From NCBI GenBank assembly GCA_964016885.1, contig OZ024740.1:134354001-134418000 (forward strand): a stretch of 64,000 nucleotides of DNA. The letters run 5' to 3'. Source of the DNA: Eledone cirrhosa. Lineage: Eukaryota. The notes below the pieces were generated by a model. That model was given only the letters and a program-made list of their open reading frames with translations. It had not been told where the DNA came from and did not search any database. The translations under genes and the position numbers were made by a program. Position 1 is the stretch's first letter. Each line of letters begins with the position of its first letter. This document shows positions 7,480 through 60,821 of this stretch, in pieces.

Positions 7480-7834
7480 TTTACCTCCATTAATCTCACC
7501 AACCATCCGACCAGATTACCTAACCCAAATGCAACAGGCACAATATACACATAACAGAATCCTAACTATAGTAATTTCTGGACACCCCACACCCAATACT
7601 ATTCACCGATCTCTGTCGGAATGTGGTGTGTGATCTTCAGCAAGGTGGTGGTATTGTATATCTGAAGCGATCAATCTGTTCGTTGTACCTAATTGTTTGA
7701 CCAACTATCTATGTGTCATATTCAAAAGCAACATCAACCATATTCTCTCTCTTAGAATTATATTCTCTCTGTTTTGTCCTTTTTCCCTTCTCAGTAACCC
7801 CTTGCATTTTAGTGGCTCGAGTGAATATATATAT

Positions 7835-8596
7835 ATATATATATGAATGTATATATAGAGTATTTTGCAATACACTGTATGCTTAATTATATATATATAT
7901 ATATATATATATTAGAATTGGTGCTCTGAAATAGCGATATATATATGAATGTATATATAGTGTATTTTGCAATACACTGTATGCTTAATTAAAAGCATTT
8001 TGAAGACCTTACGCTATTGTTTTAGAGTAGTGACAGTCTCACTTACTTTAAATTTTCAGCAAACAGGGGGAAATAAAGCTGACAGAGCTCTGTTTCGTAC
8101 TATTTGTCAGCTTTATTTCCCCCTGTTTGCTGAAAATTTAAAGTAAGTGAGACTGTCACTACTCTAAAACAATAGCGTAAGGTCTTCAAAATGCTTTTAA
8201 TTAAGCATACAGTGTATTGCAAAATACACTATATATACATTCATATATATATATCGCTATTTCAGAGCACCAATTCTAATTTTCAATTTCTGCTTGACCG
8301 GCAACCACTCTGTATAATCAGTTCCTGATTATTACTAGAATTCTATAAGAATCAAACATTCATGATTTTCAGCAAACAGGTGGAGTACTTAGCTTTGATA
8401 AGTACCAAATAGTACGAAACAGAGCTCTGTCAGTTTTATCTCCCCCTGTTTGCTGAAAAGTTAAAGTAAGTGAGACTGTCACTACTCTAAAACAACAGCG
8501 TAAGGTCTTCAAAATGCTTTTAATTAAGCATACAGTGTATTGCAAAATACACTATATATACATTCATATATATATCGCTATTTCAGAGCACCAATT

Positions 8597-8600
<4 letters not shown>
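7835..8600. mobile_element. Retrozyme-like HHR repeat family B (~323 bp unit) in fold-back arrangement
   Basis: 7910-8105 inverted relative to 8106-8600; 'gtcag' register recurs at 8106 and 8429; partial copy 7835-7888; flanked by (TA)n; homologous to the 310 bp array at 19782-22140. Confidence 0.75.
8391..8435 (+). ncRNA. Type I hammerhead ribozyme, U3-A8 core variant
   Basis: agct-TTGATAA-gtac(caaata)gtac-GAA-acagagctctgt-C-agtt: stems I and II, palindromic stem III, GUC site; enclosed by 15 bp stem 8366-8380/8445-8459. Confidence 0.75.
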
Positions 8601-8661
<61 letters not shown>

Positions 8662-12314: not shown

Positions 12315-13880
12315 TATTAGAAAAGGGAAGTAAGGTTCTATACAAAACAGTGGCTATAGAGAAAAGGTGAAGTTAGAAATAGCACGGAAAATATATTTTA
12401 GGGTCTGTTTTTTTTTTGTTTTTTTTTCCTTTCTTTGATTCGTCAAAGTGACATTATTGAAAAAATGAGAGGGACAATTCTTTTAAAAAAGAGTGTTATA
12501 AAGTATATAAAGTATTACCGGTTTCGATGTATTATTAGAATTCATCTTATCAAATGCTGAGTATTACAATTAAAAATAATTAATAAGAATTTAAAAACTA
12601 AAAATTAAAGATTTAAAATTAAGAAGTAAGTTTTTTTCCATCTTCCTTGCTGAGAAAGAGACTGAAGAATGAGTTCTTGTGTATAGGGAGAGATGTGTTG
12701 TCATAAAGTAGCAGCAACAGTAGTGGTAGGTGTGTTTCTTCACAGAACAAAATTGTTTTTTGGGGACAAAGTAAATATGTGTGTGTATATTTCGATTGTG
12801 ATAATGGACTGGTCAAGAGTTCAGATGTGGGTGGCGGGGGGGTGTAAGCTAGAGACAAATTCTTGTAAAAGAAATTCTATTTTTGGAATATGGTTTTATG
12901 AAATGTATGTAGTGTAAGAGTGTATATATAAACATACACACATGTGTGTGTGCTCCAGCCTGTCTGTCACAGCTCCCTTTCTGGTGGGAAATAAAAATAA
13001 ACAGAGCAGAGCATCAGTGGTGTTTGGAAAATATGTGAATGAGCAATTTTTTCTCTCTTATTTCGTGGTGTGTTGATGGGGGGGGGGATCTAATGGGGGT
13101 GATTACATATTTAATTTTGGTTTAAATTTGTTAATAAATAGTTTTTCTTTATTTATGCTTTGTTGTTGAGTGAAAGAATCGGGGCGCTTGTAAAGGGGGA
13201 AGATTTAAAAGTTGGGTAGGGTCATTCCTGCACAATCTGCAATGTGGCTACTTAAGGGGATTTTTTCTTGTGTTTACGTCTCAGATTTGTCGGCGATGGA
13301 TGGTCATTATTTTGCGTAATGACACACCCGTCTGTCCTATATAGGTTTTTCGACAGCCACCACATGTCATTACGTAGATCAGATTTTCTGAGTTGCAAGT
13401 GAAGTTGTGTTTCACTGTGATTGTTTGACTATCTTTAAACGTGAATGTGCCATGAAGTTTTTCACCTAATGCGGGCCCTAGGCCATAAAAAAATTGTCCT
13501 TCAATTAAGTATAGACATGTGCCACCGTTTGTTCTTCCGCATTTTGTTACCGTAAGGTTGGAGATTGGTTTGTAAATATTTGTTCCAGTGAGAATGTGTT
13601 TTAGTGATTTGGGTTGCCTTTTACTTTTAATGATCTTGTGTGTTTCTAGGATTTTTTTCATTTTTTCATCTTTAAATAGAATGGGGAGGATTTTGTGTAG
13701 GAGCTCGAAAATTTCGGTGTTTCTGGGGTTGAACGTGGATACATATGGTAAGGTATTGTTTGTGGTTCTGTGCTTTGAGTTGTTGGTTTCATGAAAATTT
13801 GCGTTTTGCTCTGTCTATTCCGTTATTAATTATGTCAAGTGGGAAAGCTTTTAAGGTAAGTGTGTTTTTTAGTTCATTTG
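12315..13880 (-). mobile_element. 5'-truncated Penelope-like element (GIY-YIG end plus 3' UTR)
   Basis: ORF 13281-13661 (KCGRTNGGTC..LIYVMTCGGCRKTYIGQT) is homologous to the C-terminus of ORF 17574-19550; HHR at 12511-12558; left boundary approximate. Confidence 0.85.
12511..12558 (-). ncRNA. Minimal type I hammerhead ribozyme, U3-A8 variant, PLE 3' end
   Basis: Minus strand agcat-TTGATAA-gatg...catc-GAA-accggt-A-atact; palindromic ACCGGT stem III; one mismatch in stem I. Confidence 0.7.
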
Positions 13881-14606: not shown

Positions 14607-15282
14607 GTGAGGTTTTTTTTACAAAATGAAAAATAACCCAGGTGTCCTACACGAGTGGAAGTATAAAGAAAAAGAGATGAAATCGAAAATGCAACTGAAA
14701 TCTTATTTTTTTTTTAAATATATTTATTTGGTTCCTTTACCGGTTTCGCAGTTCTTCTGCTTTTCAAAAGGTGAGTTGAGATGGAGGGTCTGTGGTTTTT
14801 CTCACATCTGGTTGGTCTCTAAATGTTACTTGTTTTATATGGAAAAAGTGGCTCGAAAGCCAGGTTTTTCGAGAAGTAATTTGATTGGTTTGTCAATAAT
14901 TATAATAAATTTCGCGCCAGTTCGCGTTACAATAGTTCTTCAAATAAGAGAGAGGGGGGTTGTCACAGGTTGTTTTTTCATATATGAGTGTTTGAATTTC
15001 TTTTTACTTGAAACAAGGAGGCTCACGAAGGCTTTTTTTTGGTTGGTTATAAATGAAATTTGGCTGTCACGTGAACAAGTTTTCATTACATTTTTGCGCC
15101 CTTATTTGGAAAACTATTCTGTAGTCTTTATAGTGAATGTTATGACAATGGAGAGATAGTGGTCAAGGGGAAATGGATTGGGAGAAATGTTCTGGTTCAG
15201 TGAATATGGCCAGCTGTCAGAGTTCAGGTGTCAGAGTTCAGATTTTCTATTGAGACTGAAGATATGTGTTTATTTGTGTGCT

Positions 15283-15313
<31 letters not shown>

Positions 15314-16850
15314 ATGTGTGTATTGGAAGATGATTCTATTAGTAGAGATGGGGGAGGGAGTTGTGTGTGTGTGTATATGGGTGTTATGTGTGTGTGTGCG
15401 AGTATGTTAAGATGGAGAGAATATATATTTTTTGTGTGTGTGTATATATATGTGTGTAGGAAAGTGGTTCTATTAGTAGAAATGGGGAGGGAGTTGTAGG
15501 TGTGGGGGTTGTTATGGATGTGTATGGGTGTTATGTGTGTGGAAGTATGGTTAGCATGTTAAGATGAAGAGAATATATATATATATATATTGTGTGTGTG
15601 TGTATGTGTGTGTGTAGGAAAGTGATTCCTTTAGTAGGAAGATGATTCTATTAGTAGAGATGGGGGAGGGAGTTGTGTGTGTATATGGGTGTTATGTGTG
15701 TGTGTGCGAGTATGTTAAGATGGAGAGAATATATATTTTGTGTGTGTGTATATATATATGTGTGTAGGAAAGTGGTTCTATTAGTAGAAATGGTGAGGGA
15801 GTTGTAGGTGTGGGGGTTGTTATGTGTGTGTATGGGTGTTATGTGTGTGGGAGTATGGTTAGCATGTTAAGATGAAGAGAATATATATATATATATATAT
15901 TGTGTGTGTGTGTATGTGTGTGTGTAGGAAAGTGATTCCTTTAGTAGGAATATTTTTGAATGAACATATTTTCCTGACTTTTTCGTGTTTGCTGTTGTAT
16001 TGCCAGTGCAAACGTATGTTAAGGTTTATTTAGTTCGGGTTTTTATTTTCTAAAGTAGGTGTTATGTGTGTGTATGTCATATTGTGGTGTTGACATAATG
16101 TATATTAAACCTTATTTAATGTTGGTCTATATTTTTGAATAAACATATTTTCCTTATTTATTCGCATTTGTTCTGTTGTATTGTTAGCGCAAAGGTAAAA
16201 TGGGAAGACTTGGAATTTGGGTGTCTTATTACTTGCGCAAATGTCTAGATATGCACTTAGTGGTATCTGTCTCGTGGTTGGATCTCGTAATTGTTGGCGA
16301 TGAACTGTCATTCTGTTTCTGAGTGTGAGTTTAGTTTGTCCTATATAATCTTCATTGCATCCTTTACATTTAATGGCATAAATTAGATTTTTTGATGAGC
16401 AAGTGAAGTGATTTTTTACAGTAAAATTTTGTCCTGATTTAAATGTATACGTGTTGCCTTCAATGAGGTGAGTGCAGGTTCCACAATTAGAGCGACCACA
16501 TTTTTTGATACTTGGTTGTGGGTTTGTGGTAGGTAATTTGGCATTGGTGAGTAATGTTTTCAGTGATTTTGGTTGTCTTTTGCTTTTGATTATTTTGTGT
16601 GTTTCAAGGGCTTTTTTCATTCTTGGGTTTTGTTTTAGTAGTGGGATGTTATTGTGAATAGTGTTGTAAGCTTCCGCATTTCTTGGGTTGTGTGTTGAGA
16701 TATATGATAGAATATTGGACGTACCTTGAATTTGTTTCTGTTTCCGTAATTCATCAATGCCTATTGCTTTAGCCCTTTCTATTCCATTATTTATTAGTAA
16801 TAGTGGGTACTCTCTCTCAAGTAGAATTTCCTTTAATTCTTGAAGTCTTT
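14600..16850 (-). mobile_element. Inverted 3' duplicate (inverted pseudo-LTR) of the Penelope-like element
   Basis: Reverse complement of 18805 onward; ORF 16105-16620 equals the last 171 aa of ORF 17574-19550; HHR mirror at 14734-14771; internal ~310 bp tandem duplication ~15325-15950. Confidence 0.95.
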
Positions 16851-17573
16851 AAACTAAAACTCACACACCACATGCACAACAAATAACAAAAAAAGTAACA
16901 AAACGTCCAACATACCCCCAGCAAAACTATAACGATAATCCCAGAAACCATAGACAAAACTATAACCCTACTAACAAAAACCAAAGATCCCCGAACACAA
17001 GGCAGGACCTGATCCGCAGATCACAACCCACACAAAACCTATTCCAAAACCGTAGACCCCTGCCCACACAGAGCCTGTTCCAAAACCATAGATCCCAACC
17101 CACACAAAGGAACCAAATCTACAACCCGGACTATCAACAAACCGAACCTCAATACGTCCGAAACTTCTATACATGACCACACAACAACAGGGGAAATACC
17201 ATTAGATATAATAATACCAATGAAAAAACATTCCAGAAAAATCATTTTTTAGACCAAGGCTACAGGACTCACGACACCCGGTGGCACAAACCGATTTTGA
17301 AAATCCGAAAATAATTAACAATTCAAATACAAACCTCTCAGCCCAACAAGTAAAAATTCTCTCCAAAGGTCTGAAATTCACACCAACACCACAATATCCT
17401 ACCCCAACGAGATAAATGACGATATCTCACACTTCTGTAGAAAATTACGTCTCACAGAGGAATTCTTTGACAAGGAGAATAACGACGAAGCAATTGTACG
17501 GAATAAAAGCAGCTACAACCCAACAAAAGGTAGAAACAGAGTTCTGGACAAATTTTGTGACCACATAGCTACC

Positions 17574-19550
17574 TTGCCATACCATGAACTACCGCAACCT
17601 AAACCCAAACCCAACACAAGTCGAAGGGAATGGGAGATTATCCATGAACTAAAAAACAATACGGACATTGTAATTAAGGAAGCGGACAAGGGAAGTACTG
17701 TTGTCATTATGGAGGCTGAAACATATAAAAATTCTATGTTCTCTCTCTTACAAAATACTAATTACTATGAAAGAGTAAAAAACTACCAGCAATCAAAAAT
17801 AATGACCAAATTAAACACACTGATTTATCGATACCAGGAAGACCTAACTAAAAAGGAACGCGATTATTTAACAAATTTTGAATACAAAACCAGCAACCTT
17901 TACGGACTTCCGAAGATCCACAAATGTAAAATAATCAACGATGCCTGTAAACAATCCACCTCAGCCTGCGTGAACACACAATACCCCACAGACCTTAAAT
18001 TAAGACCAATTGTAGCGGGCCCACAATGTGAAACACACAGATTGAGCAACTTTATAGACATACTACTGAAACCAATACTGAAACACCTACCAAGCCTTGT
18101 AAGAGACGATCTGGACCTCTTAAACCACCTCCCCAAACATGTCAACAACGACACTATTATTGTGTCTTTCGATGTAGTGAATCTCTACACAACGATCCCA
18201 CACCAATACGGACTAGAAGCAATAGGATTCTGGCTAGAGAAATATCCCAATGAGATACCTGACAGAATAGAAAAAAGCTTCATCACCGAGGGATTAAAAT
18301 TCATCCTACAGAACAACTTTTTTGATTTCGATGACAATACTTACAAGCAAATATCGGGGACTGCGATGGGCACAAAAGCCGCTCCAACTTATGCCAACTT
18401 AGTCATGGCATACTTAGAAGTCCAGATATATGAACAGTCCAAATCAAAATACGGATTGAACTTCCACAAATATTTATCAGAGAATTGGAAACGCTACTTG
18501 GATGATTGCCTCATTCTTTGGTCCCACACACTCGACCAACTGAAGGATTTCAAAAAATTAATAAACGGCATTAATAACCACATCCAATTCACAATGGAAT
18601 ACAGCCAAGATCAACTCCCATTTCTGGACATCTTAATCACAAAAAAAGACACAAATATCGAAACTGACATACACTACAAACCAACAGATTCCAAACAATA
18701 TCTGCTATTCACCTCCAACCATCCAAAGCACACGAAGACGAACATTCCTTTTAACCTAGCAAGAAGAATTTGCACAATTGTCTCCAATTATGAAACGCGA
18801 AATAAAAGACTTCAAGAATTAAAGGAAATTCTACTTGAGAGAGAATACCCACTATTACTAATAAATAATGGAATAGAAAGGGCTAAAGCAATAGGCATTG
18901 ATGAATTACGGAAACAGAAACAAATTCAAGGTACGTCCAATATTCTATCATGTATCTCAACACACAACCCAAGAAATGCGGAAGCTTACAACACTATTCA
19001 CAATAACATCAAACTACTAAAACAAAACCCAAGAATGAAAAAAGCCCTTGAAACACACAAAATAATCAAAAGCAAACGACAACCAAAATCACTGAAAACA
19101 TTACTCACCAATGCCAAATTACCTACCACAAACCCACAACCAAGTATCAAAAAATGTGGTCGCTCTAATTGTGGAACCTGCACTCACCTCATTGAAGGCA
19201 ACACGTATACATTTAAATCAGGACAAAATTTTACTGTAAAAAATCACTTCACTTGCTCATCAAAAAATCTAATTTATGCCATTAAATGTAAAGGATGCAA
19301 TGAAGATTATATAGGACAAACTAAACTCACACTCAGAAACAGAATGACAGTTCATCGCCAACAATTACGAGATCCAACCACGAGACAGATACCACTAAGT
19401 GCATATCTAGACATTTGCGCAAGTAATAAGACACCCAAATTCCAAGTCTTCCCATTTTACCTTTGCGCTAACAATACAACAGAACAAATGCGAATAAATA
19501 AGGAAAATATGTTTATTCAAAAATATAGACCAACATTAAATAAGGTTTAA
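17574..19550 (+). CDS. PLE reverse transcriptase / GIY-YIG endonuclease
   Basis: LYGLPKIHK, LRPIV, SFDVVNLYT, GTAMG, RYLDD, LPFLD, KCGRSNCGTC, LIYAIKC..YIGQT; homology continues upstream (ILSKGLKFTPTP ~17356-17390) across a frameshift near 17400. Confidence 0.95.
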   Translation: MPYHELPQPKPKPNTSRREWEIIHELKNNTDIVIKEADKGSTVVIMEAETYKNSMFSLLQNTNYYERVKNYQQSKIMTKLNTLIYRYQEDLTKKERDYLTNFEYKTSNLYGLPKIHKCKIINDACKQSTSACVNTQYPTDLKLRPIVAGPQCETHRLSNFIDILLKPILKHLPSLVRDDLDLLNHLPKHVNNDTIIVSFDVVNLYTTIPHQYGLEAIGFWLEKYPNEIPDRIEKSFITEGLKFILQNNFFDFDDNTYKQISGTAMGTKAAPTYANLVMAYLEVQIYEQSKSKYGLNFHKYLSENWKRYLDDCLILWSHTLDQLKDFKKLINGINNHIQFTMEYSQDQLPFLDILITKKDTNIETDIHYKPTDSKQYLLFTSNHPKHTKTNIPFNLARRICTIVSNYETRNKRLQELKEILLEREYPLLLINNGIERAKAIGIDELRKQKQIQGTSNILSCISTHNPRNAEAYNTIHNNIKLLKQNPRMKKALETHKIIKSKRQPKSLKTLLTNAKLPTTNPQPSIKKCGRSNCGTCTHLIEGNTYTFKSGQNFTVKNHFTCSSKNLIYAIKCKGCNEDYIGQTKLTLRNRMTVHRQQLRDPTTRQIPLSAYLDICASNKTPKFQVFPFYLCANNTTEQMRINKENMFIQKYRPTLNKV

Positions 19551-19935
19551 TATACATTATGTCAACACCACAATATGACATACACACACACACATAACAC
19601 CTTCTACTTTAGAAAATAAAAACCCGAACTAAATAAACCTTAACATACGTTTGCACTGGCAATACAACAGCAAACACGAAAAAGTCAGGAAAATATGTTC
19701 ATTCAAAAATATTCCTACTAAAGGAATCACTTTCCTACACACACACATACACACACACACAATATATATATATATATATATAATAAATGCTCTGAAATAG
19801 CGATATATATGTGAATACAGACATAGAATATTCGAAAATATTCTGTATGTTTATAATAAACATTTTGAAGACCTAATCGCTATAGAATAGAATACGTCAC
19901 GTATTACAATTAGATTCTCGATAAAAGCAAGGGAA

Positions 19936-19978
19936 GTAATCTACGCGTTTCATTCTTATTAGAAATCTTCAGGACCAC
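19936..19978 (-). ncRNA. Hammerhead ribozyme (first of 5 minus-strand copies; others start at 20246, 20556, 20866, 21176)
   Basis: Minus strand gtggtc-CTGAAGA-t-ttct(aata)agaa-t-GAA-acgcgt-A-gattac. Confidence 0.85.
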
Positions 19979-21345
19979 ATATCCAGTGCTTTTATCGAGA
20001 ATGACACAGCTAGAGACTTATAGAATACTTAGCTGTGTACAGGAACTGGTTTGAAAGAGCGGTTGCCGGTCCGGCAGAAATTAGAAATTGGAATAAATGC
20101 TCTGAAATAGCGATATATATGTGAATACAGACATAGAATATTCGAAAATATTCTGTATGTTTATAATAAACATTTTGAAGACCTAATCGCTATAGAATAG
20201 AATACGTCACGTATTACAATTAGATTCTCGATAAAAGCAAGGGAAGTAATCTACGCGTTTCATTCTTATTAGAAATCTTCAGGACCACATATCCAGTGCT
20301 TTTATCGAGAATGACACAGCTAGAGACTTATAGAATACTTAGCTGTGTACAGGAACTGGTTTGAAAGAGCGGTTGCCGGTCCGGCAGAAATTAGAAATTG
20401 GAATAAATGCTCTGAAATAGCGATATATATGTGAATACAGACATAGAATATTCGAAAATATTCTGTATGTTTATAATAAACATTTTGAAGACCTAATCGC
20501 TATAGAATAGAATACGTCACGTATTACAATTAGATTCTCGATAAAAGCAAGGGAAGTAATCTACGCGTTTCATTCTTATTAGAAATCTTCAGGACCACAT
20601 ATCCAGTGCTTTTATCGAGAATGACACAGCTAGAGACTTATAGAATACTTAGCTGTGCACAGGAACTGGTTTGAAAGAGCGGTTGCCGGTCCGGCAGAAA
20701 TTAGAAATTGGAATAAATGCTCTGAAATAGCGATATATATGTGAATACAGACATAGAATATTCGAAAATATTCTGTATGTTTATAATAAACATTTTGAAG
20801 ACCTAATCGCTATAGAATAGAATACGTCACGTATTACAATTAGATTCTCGATAAAAGCAAGGGAAGTAATCTACGCGTTTCATTCTTATTAGAAATCTTC
20901 AGGATCACATATCCAGTGCTTTTATCGAGAATGACACAGCTAGAGACTTATAGAATACTTAGCTGTGTACAGGAACTGGTTTGAAAGAGCGGTTGCCGGT
21001 CCGGCAGAAATTAGAAATTGGAATAAATGCTCTGAAATAGCGATATATATGTGAATACAGACATAGAATATTCGAAAATATTCTGTATGTTTATAATAAA
21101 CATTTTGAAGACCTAATCGCTATAGAATAGAATACGTCACGTATTACAATTAGATTCTCGATAAAAGCAAGGGAAGTAATCTACGCGTTTCATTCTTATT
21201 AGAAATCTTCAGGACCACATATCCAGTGCTTTTATCGAGAATGACACAGCTAGAGACTTATAGAATACTTCAAACCAGTTCCTGTACACAGCTAAGTATT
21301 CTATAAGTCTCTAGCTGTGTCATTCTCGATAAAAGCACTGGATAT

Positions 21346-21388
21346 GTGGTCCTGAAGATTTCTAATAAGAATGAAACGCGTAGATTAC
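21346..21388 (+). ncRNA. Hammerhead ribozyme (first of 3 plus-strand copies; others start at 21656, 21966)
   Basis: Canonical CUGAAGA/GAAA core, 6 bp stem I, palindromic ACGCGT stem III, GUA site; outer 16 bp perfect stem 21322-21337/21395-21410. Confidence 0.85.
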
Positions 21389-22944
21389 TTCCCTTGCTTT
21401 TATCGAGAATCTAATTGTAATACGTGACGTATTCTATTCTATAGCGATTAGGTCTTCAAAATGTTTATTATAAACATACAGAATATTTTCGAATATTCTA
21501 TGTCTGTATTCACATATATATCGCTATTTCAGAGCATTTATTCCAATTTCTAATTTCTGCCGGACCGGCAACCGCTCTTTCAAACCAGTTCCTGTACACA
21601 GCTAAGTATTCTATAAGTCTCTAGCTGTGTCATTCTCGATAAAAGCACTGGATATGTGGTCCTGAAGATTTCTAATAAGAATGAAACGCGTAGATTACTT
21701 CCCTTGCTTTTATCGAGAATCTAATTGTAATACGTGACGTATTCTATTCTATAGCGATTAGGTCTTCAAAATGTTTATTATAAACATACAGAATATTTTC
21801 GAATATTCTATGTCTGTATTCACATATATATCGCTATTTCAGAGCATTTATTCCAATTTCTAATTTCTGCCGGACCGGCAACCGCTCTTTCAAACCAGTT
21901 CCTGTACACAGCTAAGTATTCTATAAGTCTCTAGCTGTGTCATTCTCGATAAAAGCACTGGATATGTGGTCCTGAAGATTTCTAATAAGAATGAAACGCG
22001 TAGATTACTTCCCTTGCTTTTATCGAGAATCTAATTGTAATACGTGACGTATTCTATTCTATAGCGATTAGGTCTTCAAAATGTTTATTATAAACATACA
22101 GAATATTTTCGAATATTCTATGTCTGTATTCACATATATATATATATATATTCTCTTCATCTTAACATGCTAACCATACTCCCACACACATAACACCCAT
22201 ACACACACATAACAACCCCCACACCTACAACTCCCTCACCATTTCTACTAATAGAACCACTTTCCTACACACATATATATATACACACACACAAAATATA
22301 TATTCTCTCCATCTTAACATACTCGCACACACACACATAACACCCATATACACACACACACAACTCCCTCCCCATCTCTACTAATAGAATCATCTTCCAA
22401 TACACACATACACACACACATACACACACACAAGCACATAAATAAACACATATCTTCAGTCTCAATAGAAAATCTGAACTCTGACACCTGAACTCTGACA
22501 GCTGGCCATATTCACTGAACCAGAACATTTCTCCCAATCCATTTTCCCTTGACCACTATCTCTCCATTGTCATAACATTCACTATAAAGACTACAGAATA
22601 GTTTTCCAAATAAGGGCGCAAAAATGTAATGAAAACTTGTTCACGTGACAGCCAAATTTCATTTATAACCAACCAAAAAAAAGCCTTCGTGAGCCTCCTT
22701 GTTTCAAGTAAAAAGAAATTCAAACACTCATATATGAAAAAACAACCTGTGACAACCCCCCCTCTCTCTTATTTGAAGAACTATTGTAACGCGAACTGGC
22801 GCGAAATTTATTATAATTATTGACAAACCAATCAAATTACTTCTCGAAAAACCTGGCTTTCGAGCTACTTTTTCCATATAAAACAAGTAACATTTAGAGA
22901 CCAACCAGATGTGAGAAAAACCACAGACCCTCCATCTCAACTCA

Positions 22945-22982
22945 CCTTTTGAAAAGCAGAAGAACTGCGAAACCGGTAAAGG
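22945..22982 (+). ncRNA. PLE 3' minimal hammerhead ribozyme, U3-A8 variant
   Basis: cctt-TTGAAAA-gcag(aagaa)ctgc-GAA-accggt-A-aagg; mirror at 14734-14771; related copy at ~42884-42922. Confidence 0.8.
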
Positions 22983-23229
22983 AACCAAATAAATATATAT
23001 ATTTTTTAAAAAAATAAGACTTCAGTTGCATTTTCGATTTCATCTCTTTTTCTTTATATATATATATATATATATATATGAATCCAAATATCACCTTCAT
23101 AAATGCTTATTAGCTACAAGCTTAAAGACACAAGACATGCAATATTTTATTATTTTATTATAACGTACATGTGTGATTATGTTTTAAGCTCTAGTCTGTA
23201 TCTACTCTTTTTTGCTTGACGTTTATAGT

Positions 23230-32432: not shown

Positions 32433-34465
32433 TCATGCAGTTACCAGTTCGTCTTTCTTGTTTAGGAGTTGGTCCGTCAAAAACAGCATTTGTAATGTTT
32501 CCTCCGAGCATAAGTTACACGGACGGCGTCCTCCCGTGTAAGAGTTGGCTCTGGACAGTAAGCTCCAAGTGAGATTATAGGTTATATTGTTATCTTTGAG
32601 GTCCCAGATGTGGCCCGAAAGGGTAGTGGCGTGACGCCGGGCCGGGTTTCGGAAAGTATGTCTGTGTTGGTATAGCCGGGTCTTGAAGTCACAAGCGGTT
32701 AATCCTATATAAGCTTTGTTGGAGGTGTCCGTCCTCACGTTGCACTGGTAGATCACATTACGATCTCTGCATCTGTTGTCGAGGGGGCAAAGGGATCCAT
32801 CAGTACAGTTACACGTCCTGGTCGGCTCTTCACTGCTATCTAGGTTATTTCTTCCATATGGGTTGAGTTTTTTGTTGCGAGAGGAGACGATGTTTTGTGC
32901 AAAGTTAGGTGAGGTGCTGTAGGGGAGTTTGATGGTATTTTTGTTGATTATGTTGTGGTAGCGGTGTTGTAGTGGGAAGTGTTTTTCGATGAGCCTAAAG
33001 AATATTTTCCCGATAGGTGTTGTCACCTCGGCATTGTGGGGAGGATTATACCACGTTACGTTGCGTGAGTGGCGGTGTCGCCTGCTGGTTCCGCTAATGG
33101 AAGCTGGAAAATAGGATATTTCCTCCCGGAAGCCACTCCGCTTGAGGGCCTGGTTGTAATAAGGCGCATGTTCCTCGAATATCTGCTCATTAGCGGACAA
33201 ACGAGATATGCGGAGGGAGATGTTTTTAACCAGGTTATTGGTGATGTTTCTAGGATGGTTCGACCGGCGGTGGATGGAGTGCAGGTTGTCGTTTGGTTTC
33301 CTGTATGGGTAGTACAGATCGTTATCGAGGTTAAGGGTAACGTCCAGGAAGTTTACTTGAGTTAGGGACGTTTGTAGGGTTATTTTAAATCCCCAGTCGC
33401 GGAAGAAGCTGATTAATTGTTTACGGACTCGGTCTGTGCTACTGGGGTTGTACCCTTTAAGGGTAAGGAGCCCATCATCACGGTACAATCCACCGCCGAA
33501 TGCAGGAAACATATCGGTGAGTTTAAATAGTAGGAATAATCCTATAAGATCTGTGACTTCAGCCGAATCCGTCGCGCCCATACCGACGTCGAAGGGGGAG
33601 TCGGGAGCTCTCTTTATCCATTTGGAGTTGTCGAAAAGTAGGACTGTCTTCCTGACGTGGAGGATGATATTTCTTTCCTGGTCGGTGATGGGCGCAAGTG
33701 TCTCGGCAAAGTCCAAGGCGGCCGTAAGGAGCGGTAAGGTAATTGAAGCATAGTAACTCTCTATGTCAAACTGGATGAATTTTGTGTCTCGTTTGTCTTC
33801 CATATTGCTGAACCATGAGATTACTTCCTGGGTGTTGAACCATAGGCTAAGTCTGGCGTTTTGCTTAACTTTTGGTATAACGCGGTCTAGGATTTTTTTA
33901 CTGATTCTCCCTATGTCGGACTTCGTTGGGTTTATAAGCCTGATAGATGGTTTACGGTCGAAGATTTGTGGTCCTTCAGTGTGAAGTAGGGAGTCCGTGG
34001 GTCTAGGGGTTCCGTGCGGTCGGCGACCCGGAGGCTGGAGGTAATTTGTTGTCCATCTCGATTTATGTCCTCGATGCTTGAGTGGTTAGCCTTTTTATAG
34101 GTGGAGTTTAGGCTGCTCCTGATCAGTGTGTGGTATCTATCGGGGTTGACGAAGTAGAGTTTACCAGTTTTATCCGAGAGCACCATGATGTCATTGGTGT
34201 TTTCATACTCTGTTAAATTGCTACGGAGTTTTTGTAGGAATCTGTTGTGTCTGGGTTTGAATTTAATGCTCTTGATCAATTGGAAAAGGTCATTCTCGAA
34301 GGGTGAGAGCATAGGGTTGGGAGGGGGAGATTTGTAGGTATTAAATCCAAATCTCTCCTTGGTATCGAAGTCCTGATTGTCGCAATATCTGTCGTAGAAA
34401 AAAGTTCTCCATCTTAGTCTTTTCGCAAAGAGGTCGATTTTTTGCGTGAGCAATCCTTGTGACAA
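32433..34465 (-). CDS. PLE RT / GIY-YIG endonuclease (one frameshift near 33960)
   Basis: LKDHK//IRLINPTKSDIGRISK, FDIESYY, FDVGMG, LYRDDGL, VNFLDV, WYNPP, CNC..CPL..C, VIYQC..YIGLT..FKTR..H, CNLC, LLNKKDEL. Confidence 0.9.
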
Positions 34466-59619: not shown

Positions 59620-59863
59620 CTTCTACATATATATATATATATATATTAAAATAACAGATTAAAGTTTAAGCAACAAATCACTGCTTTCACCCTTAACAGG
59701 GTCTTCTGAAACTAAAAAAATCAATCTGTGAACGCAGAAGTAAATATTTCGAAAAACGTTGCAACCGAAGGAAGACAGGAAGACGATACTTTGGTTCGTG
59801 GAAACGTTCCCTGGCAAAGAACGGAAAAAAACGAAGATAATACGTCATTATTTGGAGCGTAAT

Positions 59864-60209
59864 ACGTATGGATTCACCGAACATTTATTATAATGCTCGG
59901 TGTGTTTGTAAACAAACATCCCGAATTAAGCCGTACAGTGTCTAGCAACCATCGTTGCTTATTTGTTCAACACTGACAAAGGAACGCTGTACTAGTTTCA
60001 AGCTTATTAGCTATCGTCAGCAACGTATACCTTCCTGCCAGATGGTTGAACGTCTGAAAGTATATACTTTCCTTATGCATATTAACGGCTGAGCAGCCTA
60101 ATTTGCATATCGAGGGAGTTAATCGGCTTAATTCGGGATGTTTGTTTACAAACACACCGAGCATTATAATAAATGTTCGGTGAATCCATACGTACATATA
60201 TATGTGTGC

Positions 60210-60304
<95 letters not shown>

Positions 60305-60782
60305 TACTACTGTACGTTTGTATACATATATGTATGTACGTATACATACTTATATTTAAGTAACAGCCGTAACTAAGAGTGAGAAATGAAATTTCGTTTC
60401 ATTTTTTCCGTTTATCGTTTTCGGTACCCCGGCCGATTAACTCACTCGATATGCAAATTAGGCTGCTCAGCCGTTAATATGCATAAGGAAAGTATATACT
60501 ATCAGACGTTCAACCATCTGGCAGGAAGGTATATGTTGCTGACGATAGCTAATAAGCTTGAAACTAGTACAGCGTTCCTTTGTCAGTGTTGAACAAATGA
60601 GCAACGATGGTTGCTAGACACTACGGCTTAATACGGGATGTTTGTTTACGAACACACCGAGCATTATAATAAATATTCGGTGAATCCATACGTACATATA
60701 TATATATGTGTGCATGTATGTATATATATATATATGCATACTACTGTACGTCTGTATACATATATGAATGTACGTATACATA

Positions 60783-60790
<8 letters not shown>
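59864..60790. mobile_element. Retrozyme-like HHR repeat family C (~500 bp unit including TA tract), fold-back
   Basis: 59864-60127 is inverted relative to ~60430-60695; 'ggcttaat.cgggatg' at 60125 and 60625; HHRs at 59984-60026 (-) and 60533-60575 (+). Confidence 0.8.
60533..60575 (+). ncRNA. Type I hammerhead ribozyme
   Basis: atgttg-CTGACGA-t-agct(aata)agct-t-GAA-actagt-A-cagcgt; outer stem gttcaac/gttgaac. Confidence 0.85.

Positions 60791-60821
<31 letters not shown>

Follow-up and report, generated by a model that had tools for sequence, protein, structure and literature searches.

Layout and copy number of the A and B repeats

The window, the whole stretch of 64,000 nucleotides analysed here, contains insertions of two short non-coding repeat units, A and B. 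Tandem spacing gives a unit of 321 bp for A, which corrects the approximately 323 bp of the original prediction, and one of 310 bp for B. The A locus is a two-armed insertion that has decayed and contains a single complete hammerhead; its reading as a clean dimer was rejected. The B array sits in a TA tract within the 3' region of a PLE whose ends differ. The features of the two loci, in window coordinates, are as follows.

7833..7889, minus strand: 5'-truncated A fragment of 55-57 nt, ending at start site 1 and lying between TA tracts
7888..7912, no strand: (TA)n tract, target sequence
7911..8106, minus strand: A inverted arm, beginning in hammerhead loop II and ending at start site 2
8105..8598, plus strand: A forward arm, about 1.5 units, subfamily A1
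8180..8193, plus strand: frozen block AGGTCTTCRAAATG, repeated at 8503-8516
8211..8230, plus strand: terminal hairpin with covarying stem and freely varying 4-nt loop, repeated at 8534-8553
8255..8283, plus strand: 'tail' from inferred RT start site 1 (after 8254) to site 2 (8280-8283), repeated at 8576-8598
8285..8312, plus strand: frozen block directly 3' of site 2, with a small hairpin (8291-8303) and the CAGAGC partner strand (8307-8312)
8319..8327, plus strand: CAGTTCCTG, a hairpin tip
8340..8349, plus strand: frozen block ATTCTATAAG, with 0 changes on internal branches
8366..8459, plus strand: outer stem, 8366-8380 with 8445-8459, enclosing the ribozyme
8391..8435, plus strand: predicted type I hammerhead with U3-A8 core (8395-8401) and palindromic stem III (8419-8430)
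8599..8658, no strand: (TA)n tract, target sequence
19782..21270, minus strand: B array inverted arm, 4.8 units of 310 bp, ending near start site 2
21269..22141, plus strand: B array forward arm, 2.8 units, ending at start site 1

The predicted cut of the A hammerhead falls after 8431, and the forward-arm hammerheads of B, which have a C3-G8 core, lie at 21352, 21662, and 21972. Relative to the A1 majority, the A forward arm carries 12 differences, two of which (8307 and 8496) disrupt predicted pairs. The tail starts with the frozen block CGCTATTTCAGAGCA. Block AGGTCTTCRAAATG is either unpaired or forms 4 invariant base pairs with the GACC loop, and the structural context of ATTCTATAAG differs between A and B. 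Four blocks had been proposed as linkers kept in both units, and all four are present in A and B and, within the window, almost exclusive to their units. The tail block is found at 8253 and 8574 in A and at 21520 and 21830 in B, the AATTTCTGC..GACC block at 8285 in A and 21552 in B, and the AGGTCTTC block at 8180 and 8503 in A and at 21450 in B. The fourth, CAGTTCCTG, lies at 8319 in A and 21276 in B, with 1 additional match elsewhere in the window; it is common to the A and B units seen here but is replaced in subfamilies A5 and A6.

A and B share 63-68% identity and both branch from one family. At the level of sequence, common descent is established, with A and B as sister branches of one non-coding repeat family. 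Genome-wide, at least 19,424 exact matches were found to a pattern common to A1-A4 and B, against 0 for the reversed control; this number is a lower bound because the search pattern misses A5 and A6. Among the first 100 pattern matches listed, 79 were B-type and 21 A-type. The fetched copies, whose sampling was biased toward sequences resembling the queries, fall into about ten subfamilies (A1, A1b, A2a, A2b, A3, A4, A5a, A5b, A6, and B1-B3), and a further type with three copies (L346, L347, and L373) has a B-like stem I and outer stem. A tree of 26 real copies has the topology (B,(A6,(A5,(A4,(A1,A2))))), which is the same with or without the ribozyme columns, and a 100% branch puts A6 apart from A1/A2. 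The units are tandem, of low GC (<50%) and of the 150-450 bp class, with no ORF and no LTR; they wrap head to tail for up to about 4 units in A and for 29 or more in B. The host genome is 3.0 Gb, and TA/TG microsatellites are plentiful in it. Exclusion-pattern searches for more families or a partner gave 45, 403, and 40 matches, and nearly all of the 30 examined from each belonged to A/B subfamilies, known or new, or were due to chance.

Hammerhead and covarying helices

A type I hammerhead is predicted in both A and B, with the core, stems I-III, and a GUC/GUA site, and the core pattern was matched by 145 of the 164 distinct units. An Rfam scan at the gathering threshold returned 0 matches in the window, so that the A and B hammerheads were missed. 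The A core, UUGAUAA, was fixed in 26/26 of the A units first aligned; given this fixation and its compensatory pair, we rejected the reading of UUGAUAA as a 'dead ribozyme.' At the 3-8 core pair, A1/A2 and A6 have U-A, whereas A4, A5, and B have C-G, a distribution on the tree that requires at least two switches. The U3-A8 variant of the C3-G8 pair has been reported in Schistosoma PLE hammerheads (PMC4209133). Stems II and III had been said to differ between A and B and yet pair. Covariation supports both stems, but in B stem III amounts to just 1-2 bp flanking a palindrome (dimer type), and a U.U closes stem II. As a monomer, the hammerhead fold lies above the predicted minimum by 5.3 (A) and 6.7 (B) kcal/mol. 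For comparison, 8/9 predicted retrozyme dimers are reported to have failed to cleave in vitro (10.64898/2026.07.22.740005), and the ribozyme of an anole PLE was described as dispensable for in vitro insertion (PMC11167929).

Helices were defined from subfamily A1 alone together with the canonical hammerhead. Both units fold better than shuffled sequence (z of -6.15 for A and -3.83 for B). The outer stem lies where it was predicted, with its arms at 8366-8380 and 8445-8459, and between A1 and B1 all 15/15 of its positions pair with 8 two-sided changes. Covariation across copies, which the original prediction had offered as its own check, was recovered: a tree of 164 distinct units shows 21 two-sided compensatory changes on 103 internal branches, compared to 2.4 +/- 1.5 (maximum 9) in 600 shuffles in which the changes were moved among columns. 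Pairing was kept after 62/96 changes at pairs on internal branches and after 133/464 on terminal branches, which serve as the neutral control (p 6e-11). In 23 real copies, 16/65 pairs changed on both sides and 94% of cells pair, compared to 31-47% in slid controls, and a blind RNAalifold run found a two-sided change in 19/47 pairs. The asymmetry between G.U and A.C was not significant (27:16 vs 114:105, p 0.24), so it is the ribozyme core that identifies the sense strand. In the subfamily comparison, register errors affect the A2b outer stem and the B 'Pa' helix, and the A1b/A2a majority at one Pb pair is an effect of the pattern with which those loci were fetched; because both effects work against the model, the tests are conservative.

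The proposal that helices were replaced while still pairing, and that selection acts on the whole RNA, therefore applies to part of the molecule. Selection on RNA structure is supported at the outer stem, the hammerhead (stems I-III and the 3-8 pair), and two hairpins before the TA tract. Three A helices (alignment columns 67-83, 94-106, and 231-245), however, lose most of their pairs in B, and the helices of the conserved blocks show 0 two-sided changes. The hairpins quoted at 8211-8230 and 21480-21499 were located there, but their supposed exchange of one stable tetraloop for another does not hold. A census of 242 distinct hairpin contexts counted GCAA 111, GCCA 40, ATCA 29, TTCG 19, and ACCA 18 times as the terminal loop. 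The stability of a UUCG tetraloop depends on a C-G closing pair, and the closing pair of the terminal hairpin is U-A, not C-G.

Insertion ends, frozen blocks, and PLE neighbors

Of the 140 non-redundant loci, 86 have two arms whose 3' ends both point outward. The 3' ends cluster at 144 and 170-173 nt past the predicted cut site in A and at 139 and 170 nt in B, so that the two fixed sites are spaced 26-31 nt apart. TA-type repeats adjoin 179/227 of these ends (151/197 in A and 28/30 in B). Such flanks would mask any target-site duplications, which in non-LTR retrozymes, where they occur, exceed 4 bp. In 59/62 scorable two-armed loci each site was used once; the window A locus is a probable exception, and the count becomes 58/62 if its 55-nt fragment is a separate event, both arms of that locus then ending at site 2. 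An end outside both site windows was found in 24/86 two-armed loci. The 5' breakpoints are scattered through the unit with no clear enrichment at the cut site, and their pile-up at position 1 is a reference edge effect. Many of these loci show snap-back junctions at hairpins. The arms continue through the cut site over many units, and B arrays are of a single haplotype across both arms: in three of them, private variants are fixed in all units read of both arms and absent from other arrays (20 stretches examined). This combination implies a template that is either a circle or an uncut homogeneous multimer.

PLEs are described as inserting into (TA)n targets with an inverted 5'-truncated copy and a 30-40-bp tail on one end (10.1101/2021.04.23.441226). 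In vitro, the PLE tail corresponds to the sequence separating two RT start sites, and the protein, predicted to be a dimer, cuts and extends both target strands (PMC11167929). The insertion ends of A and B carry this PLE signature, with two start sites, a one-sided tail, an inverted copy, and a TA target. The one-site-per-arm rule also constrains the second-strand step of PLE transposition.

Frozen blocks changed at 0.00-0.22 per column on internal branches, compared to 0.8-1.6 for the outer stem and hammerhead. They are nearly invariant between subfamilies yet mutated in single copies, and unit extraction tolerated up to 3 mismatches in them. The series of ten subfamilies separates the parts that drift (helix sequences and loop letters) from those that are frozen (the ribozyme core and start-site blocks). 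Several of the linkers, including the tail block and the GACC block, are mutually complementary; the pairs include CGCTAT/ATAGCG, CAGAGC/GCTCTG, and a small hairpin around GAC, and GACC may possibly pair with GGTC. We therefore dropped the description of the linkers as unpaired, since most can pair with each other, albeit without covariation. One-sided changes in the block helices fit pairing, and A6 lengthens the CAGAGC helix by one pair, but none of the block-block helices has a two-sided change in the 23 real copies, which leaves the pairing of this domain unproven.

The linkers had also been suggested to be promoter or RT-recognition signals. The frozen domain encloses both sites, since the tail block starts exactly at site 1 and the GACC block lies directly 3' of site 2. 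This position at both insertion ends favors RT recognition over a promoter role. The most conserved blocks likely mark where copying starts. This names a candidate RT-binding domain of roughly 60 nt and two exact start sites within a 310-nt template.

PLEs are abundant in this genome, with 10,597 GIY-YIG candidates. In a small sample of 50 GIY-YIG loci from these candidates, no autonomous PLE with A/B-type ends was found, and no coding partner appeared in the 5' flanks of 93 one-armed loci or in 30/40 exclusion-pattern matches. Only one pair of the one-armed loci has a common adjacent flank, which is another TA-ending repeat. Neither the A and B units nor a shared 5' extension contains an ORF of the kind expected of an autonomous PLE, and no pLTR matching A or B was found.

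A young PLE occupies 14662-23058 of the window. Its 743-aa stop-to-stop frame (17319-19550) encodes RT and GIY-YIG, its inverted arm spans 14662-16850, and it has a U3-A8 hammerhead of its own at 22949-22978. Many loci contain the final ~150 nt of this PLE as short inverted pairs. We rejected this element (17319-19550) as the partner because its 3' end has its own hammerhead and lacks the A/B block. Two more PLE-like coding fragments, of other families, lie on the minus strand at 32433-34465 and 13281-13814. At two further loci (L170:3171-6282 and L169:3001-4596), PLE coding sequence abuts A 5' ends without a TA tract; these joins could be either a template switch or a nested insertion.

A probable retrozyme family copied by PLEs

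We consider it probable that A and B are non-LTR retrozymes, that is, hammerhead-processed RNAs copied by a PLE reverse transcriptase. A fold kept by paired mutations, together with two PLE-type fixed ends, makes them likely RNA parasites of PLEs. Tandem copies would be transcribed, and hammerheads would cut the multimer, B likely as a dimer through its palindromic stem III; the monomers would likely be circularized. The PLE protein would then nick both strands of a (TA)n tract and likely bind the tail and GACC blocks, which together make up the conserved domain. Copying from one nicked strand would begin at site 1 and from its counterpart at site 2, and in both cases would proceed round the template and past the cut site, with two divergent arms of variable length and a 26-31-nt tail on one arm only as the outcome. 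Only templates keeping the ribozyme and the binding domain would found new subfamilies, and inserted copies would decay neutrally.

More tentatively, the tail and GACC blocks could be a portable PLE entry site on a circular RNA, at which a dimeric PLE primes both strands and rolls both arms, with the fold-back transcripts being hyper-edited by the host; we regard this fuller version as possible but somewhat doubtful. If it were true, every array would be a frozen record of one bidirectional rolling-circle retrotransposition. In run X5, which came from another sample and whose kind was not recorded, 264 contigs fell on B (window 21580-21889), and in 5/6 loose ends listed the only differences from B, by eye, were clusters of A>G (2) or T>C (3) changes. 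In the genomic B control, 0/40 units had more than one A>G/T>C-type change per 30 nt. The X5 variants would thus appear to stem from double-stranded RNA, hyper-edited in an ADAR-like manner in both polarities, of the kind that fold-back arrays would yield. Three further runs labelled as other organisms (X4, X6, and X7) contain B as a closed 340-nt contig with 4-5 differences from the window unit, and also pieces of A; close relatives, mixed samples, or recent transfer are alternative sources.

Animal non-LTR retrozymes are described as tandem, low-GC, non-coding units of ~300 bp with one type I hammerhead per unit and thousands of copies, highly self-paired and co-existing with PLEs, all of which is also found in A and B (PMC7229834; 10.64898/2026.07.22.740005). 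To this picture A and B add two RT-start-like fixed ends, a one-sided tail, inverted arms, and (TA)n targets. As in PLEs, a partial tandem is accompanied by a 5'-truncated inverted copy, one end bears a tail, targets are AT-rich, and two start sites lie downstream of the hammerhead; a palindromic stem III is likewise shared with reported PLE minimal hammerheads, as is, in A, the U3-A8 core variant (PMC4209133; 10.1101/2021.04.23.441226; PMC11167929). The tail is 26-31 nt in A and B and is reported as 30-40 in PLEs. Start site 1 of A and B follows a UA run that could pair with the target, whereas the anole PLE is described as starting without homology in an AC-rich stem-loop (PMC11167929). Unlike PLEs, A and B have no ORF and consist entirely of a single repeated unit. 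Newt satellite 2 and Schistosoma SM-alpha resemble A and B in being tandem repeats with a type I, partly dimer-dependent hammerhead. Both are transcribed, with internal promoters of snRNA type (newt satellite 2) and tRNA type (SM-alpha). Such promoters were not found in A and B.

A catalog of hammerheads in a squid genome describes no such family in its available text (PMC6962438). Our literature search, mostly without subscription papers and supplements, returned no description of the A/B family or of tails or inverted arms in retrozymes. Nor did the available text of four sources contain a PLE end signature in retrozyme arrays or a mapped start-site domain (PMC7229834, PMC8969392, PMC6962438, and 10.64898/2026.07.22.740005). 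The words 'inverted' and 'microsatellite' are absent from the available text of the 2020 retrozyme paper (PMC7229834), and the 2026 preprint, as far as its available text goes, bases its argument for a PLE link on co-occurrence and pLTR similarity without settling the mechanism (10.64898/2026.07.22.740005). The features described here qualify A and B as a putative new non-LTR retrozyme family with insertion-level evidence of PLE mobilization and predicted cleavage. Earlier proposals that PLEs mobilize retrozymes drew on co-occurrence and sequence similarity, to which A and B add a PLE signature in the insertion ends themselves. Because the retrozyme class is already known, the value of the family is mechanistic and does not lie in a new kind of system. 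The A/B template also suits the published in vitro PLE assay.

The same element and enzyme could operate with a template that is not a circle but a linear, uncut multimer derived from an existing array. The anole PLE is reported to have used mainly unprocessed RNA in vitro (PMC11167929), the two units of the window A forward arm differ at several sites, and homogeneous source arrays exist. Against this, the fixation of array-specific variants across both arms implies a bottleneck at the monomer stage, and long-term selection on the catalytic core makes sense only if cleavage has a function. RNA circles have been shown for other animal retrozymes (PMC7229834). On balance, we find a linear template rather unlikely, and circularized monomers remain our preferred template.

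We also think it unlikely, and to a greater degree, that the frozen blocks of this same element are mainly a DNA promoter, of snRNA type or containing a TATA box, for the next unit. A tandem RNA element needs a promoter and none was identified in A or B; ATTCTATAAG, which may have a TATA-like role, is invariant in two structural contexts about 50 nt before the core; and a third hammerhead element in the window, family C, offers a parallel with a TATA-like box 46 nt before its core and a U6-like upstream element. However, when A and B were compared with the 120 nt upstream of 4 U6 and 2 U2 loci, only AT-rich stretches matched, ARAGORN found 0 tRNA genes and neither A nor B has a tRNA head, and the tail and GACC blocks stand exactly at the insertion ends and are mutually complementary, which speaks for recognition by the reverse transcriptase.

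Far less probable is an origin of A and B as truncated pLTRs of an autonomous PLE, amplified as satellites with no separately replicating short RNA. The insertion anatomy is indeed that of PLEs, Xenopus retrozymes are reported to match pLTRs with local amplification proposed (10.64898/2026.07.22.740005), and PLE coding sequence lies directly at the A 5' end in L030 and L006. Such an origin does not account for long head-to-tail runs of units without an ORF or for scattered 5' ends with hardly any shared flank, and unequal crossing-over does not produce the central inversion and the same two precise ends that the long arrays retain. We can scarcely credit that the paired changes reflect DNA-level correction of imperfect inverted repeats by hairpin template switching instead of selection on RNA, even with common snap-back junctions, a long perfect stem as the most strongly covarying helix, and no significant G.U/A.C asymmetry, since the 3-8 pair, 5 nt apart in a single-stranded loop with no hairpin for repair, switched at least twice, core G5, A6, A9, and GAAA were retained, the palindromic stem III was rebuilt with a different sequence, and unpaired blocks are frozen too.

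Family C lies at 59860-60800 of the window, with cores at 60020 (minus) and 60539 (plus), and is two-armed and TA-flanked like A and B. Unlike A and B, it has a motif matching the element about 75 nt upstream of the U6 genes of this genome, followed about 40 nt later by the TATA-like box, and it likely carries an internal promoter of the U6 type. At L155:456-800, and also in L177, an A tail is joined directly to a family C hammerhead, a chimera suggesting that one RT, shared by both families, switched templates. The element at L283:1000-1210, which is small, palindromic, and TA-flanked, has a B-like hammerhead core and is otherwise unrelated.
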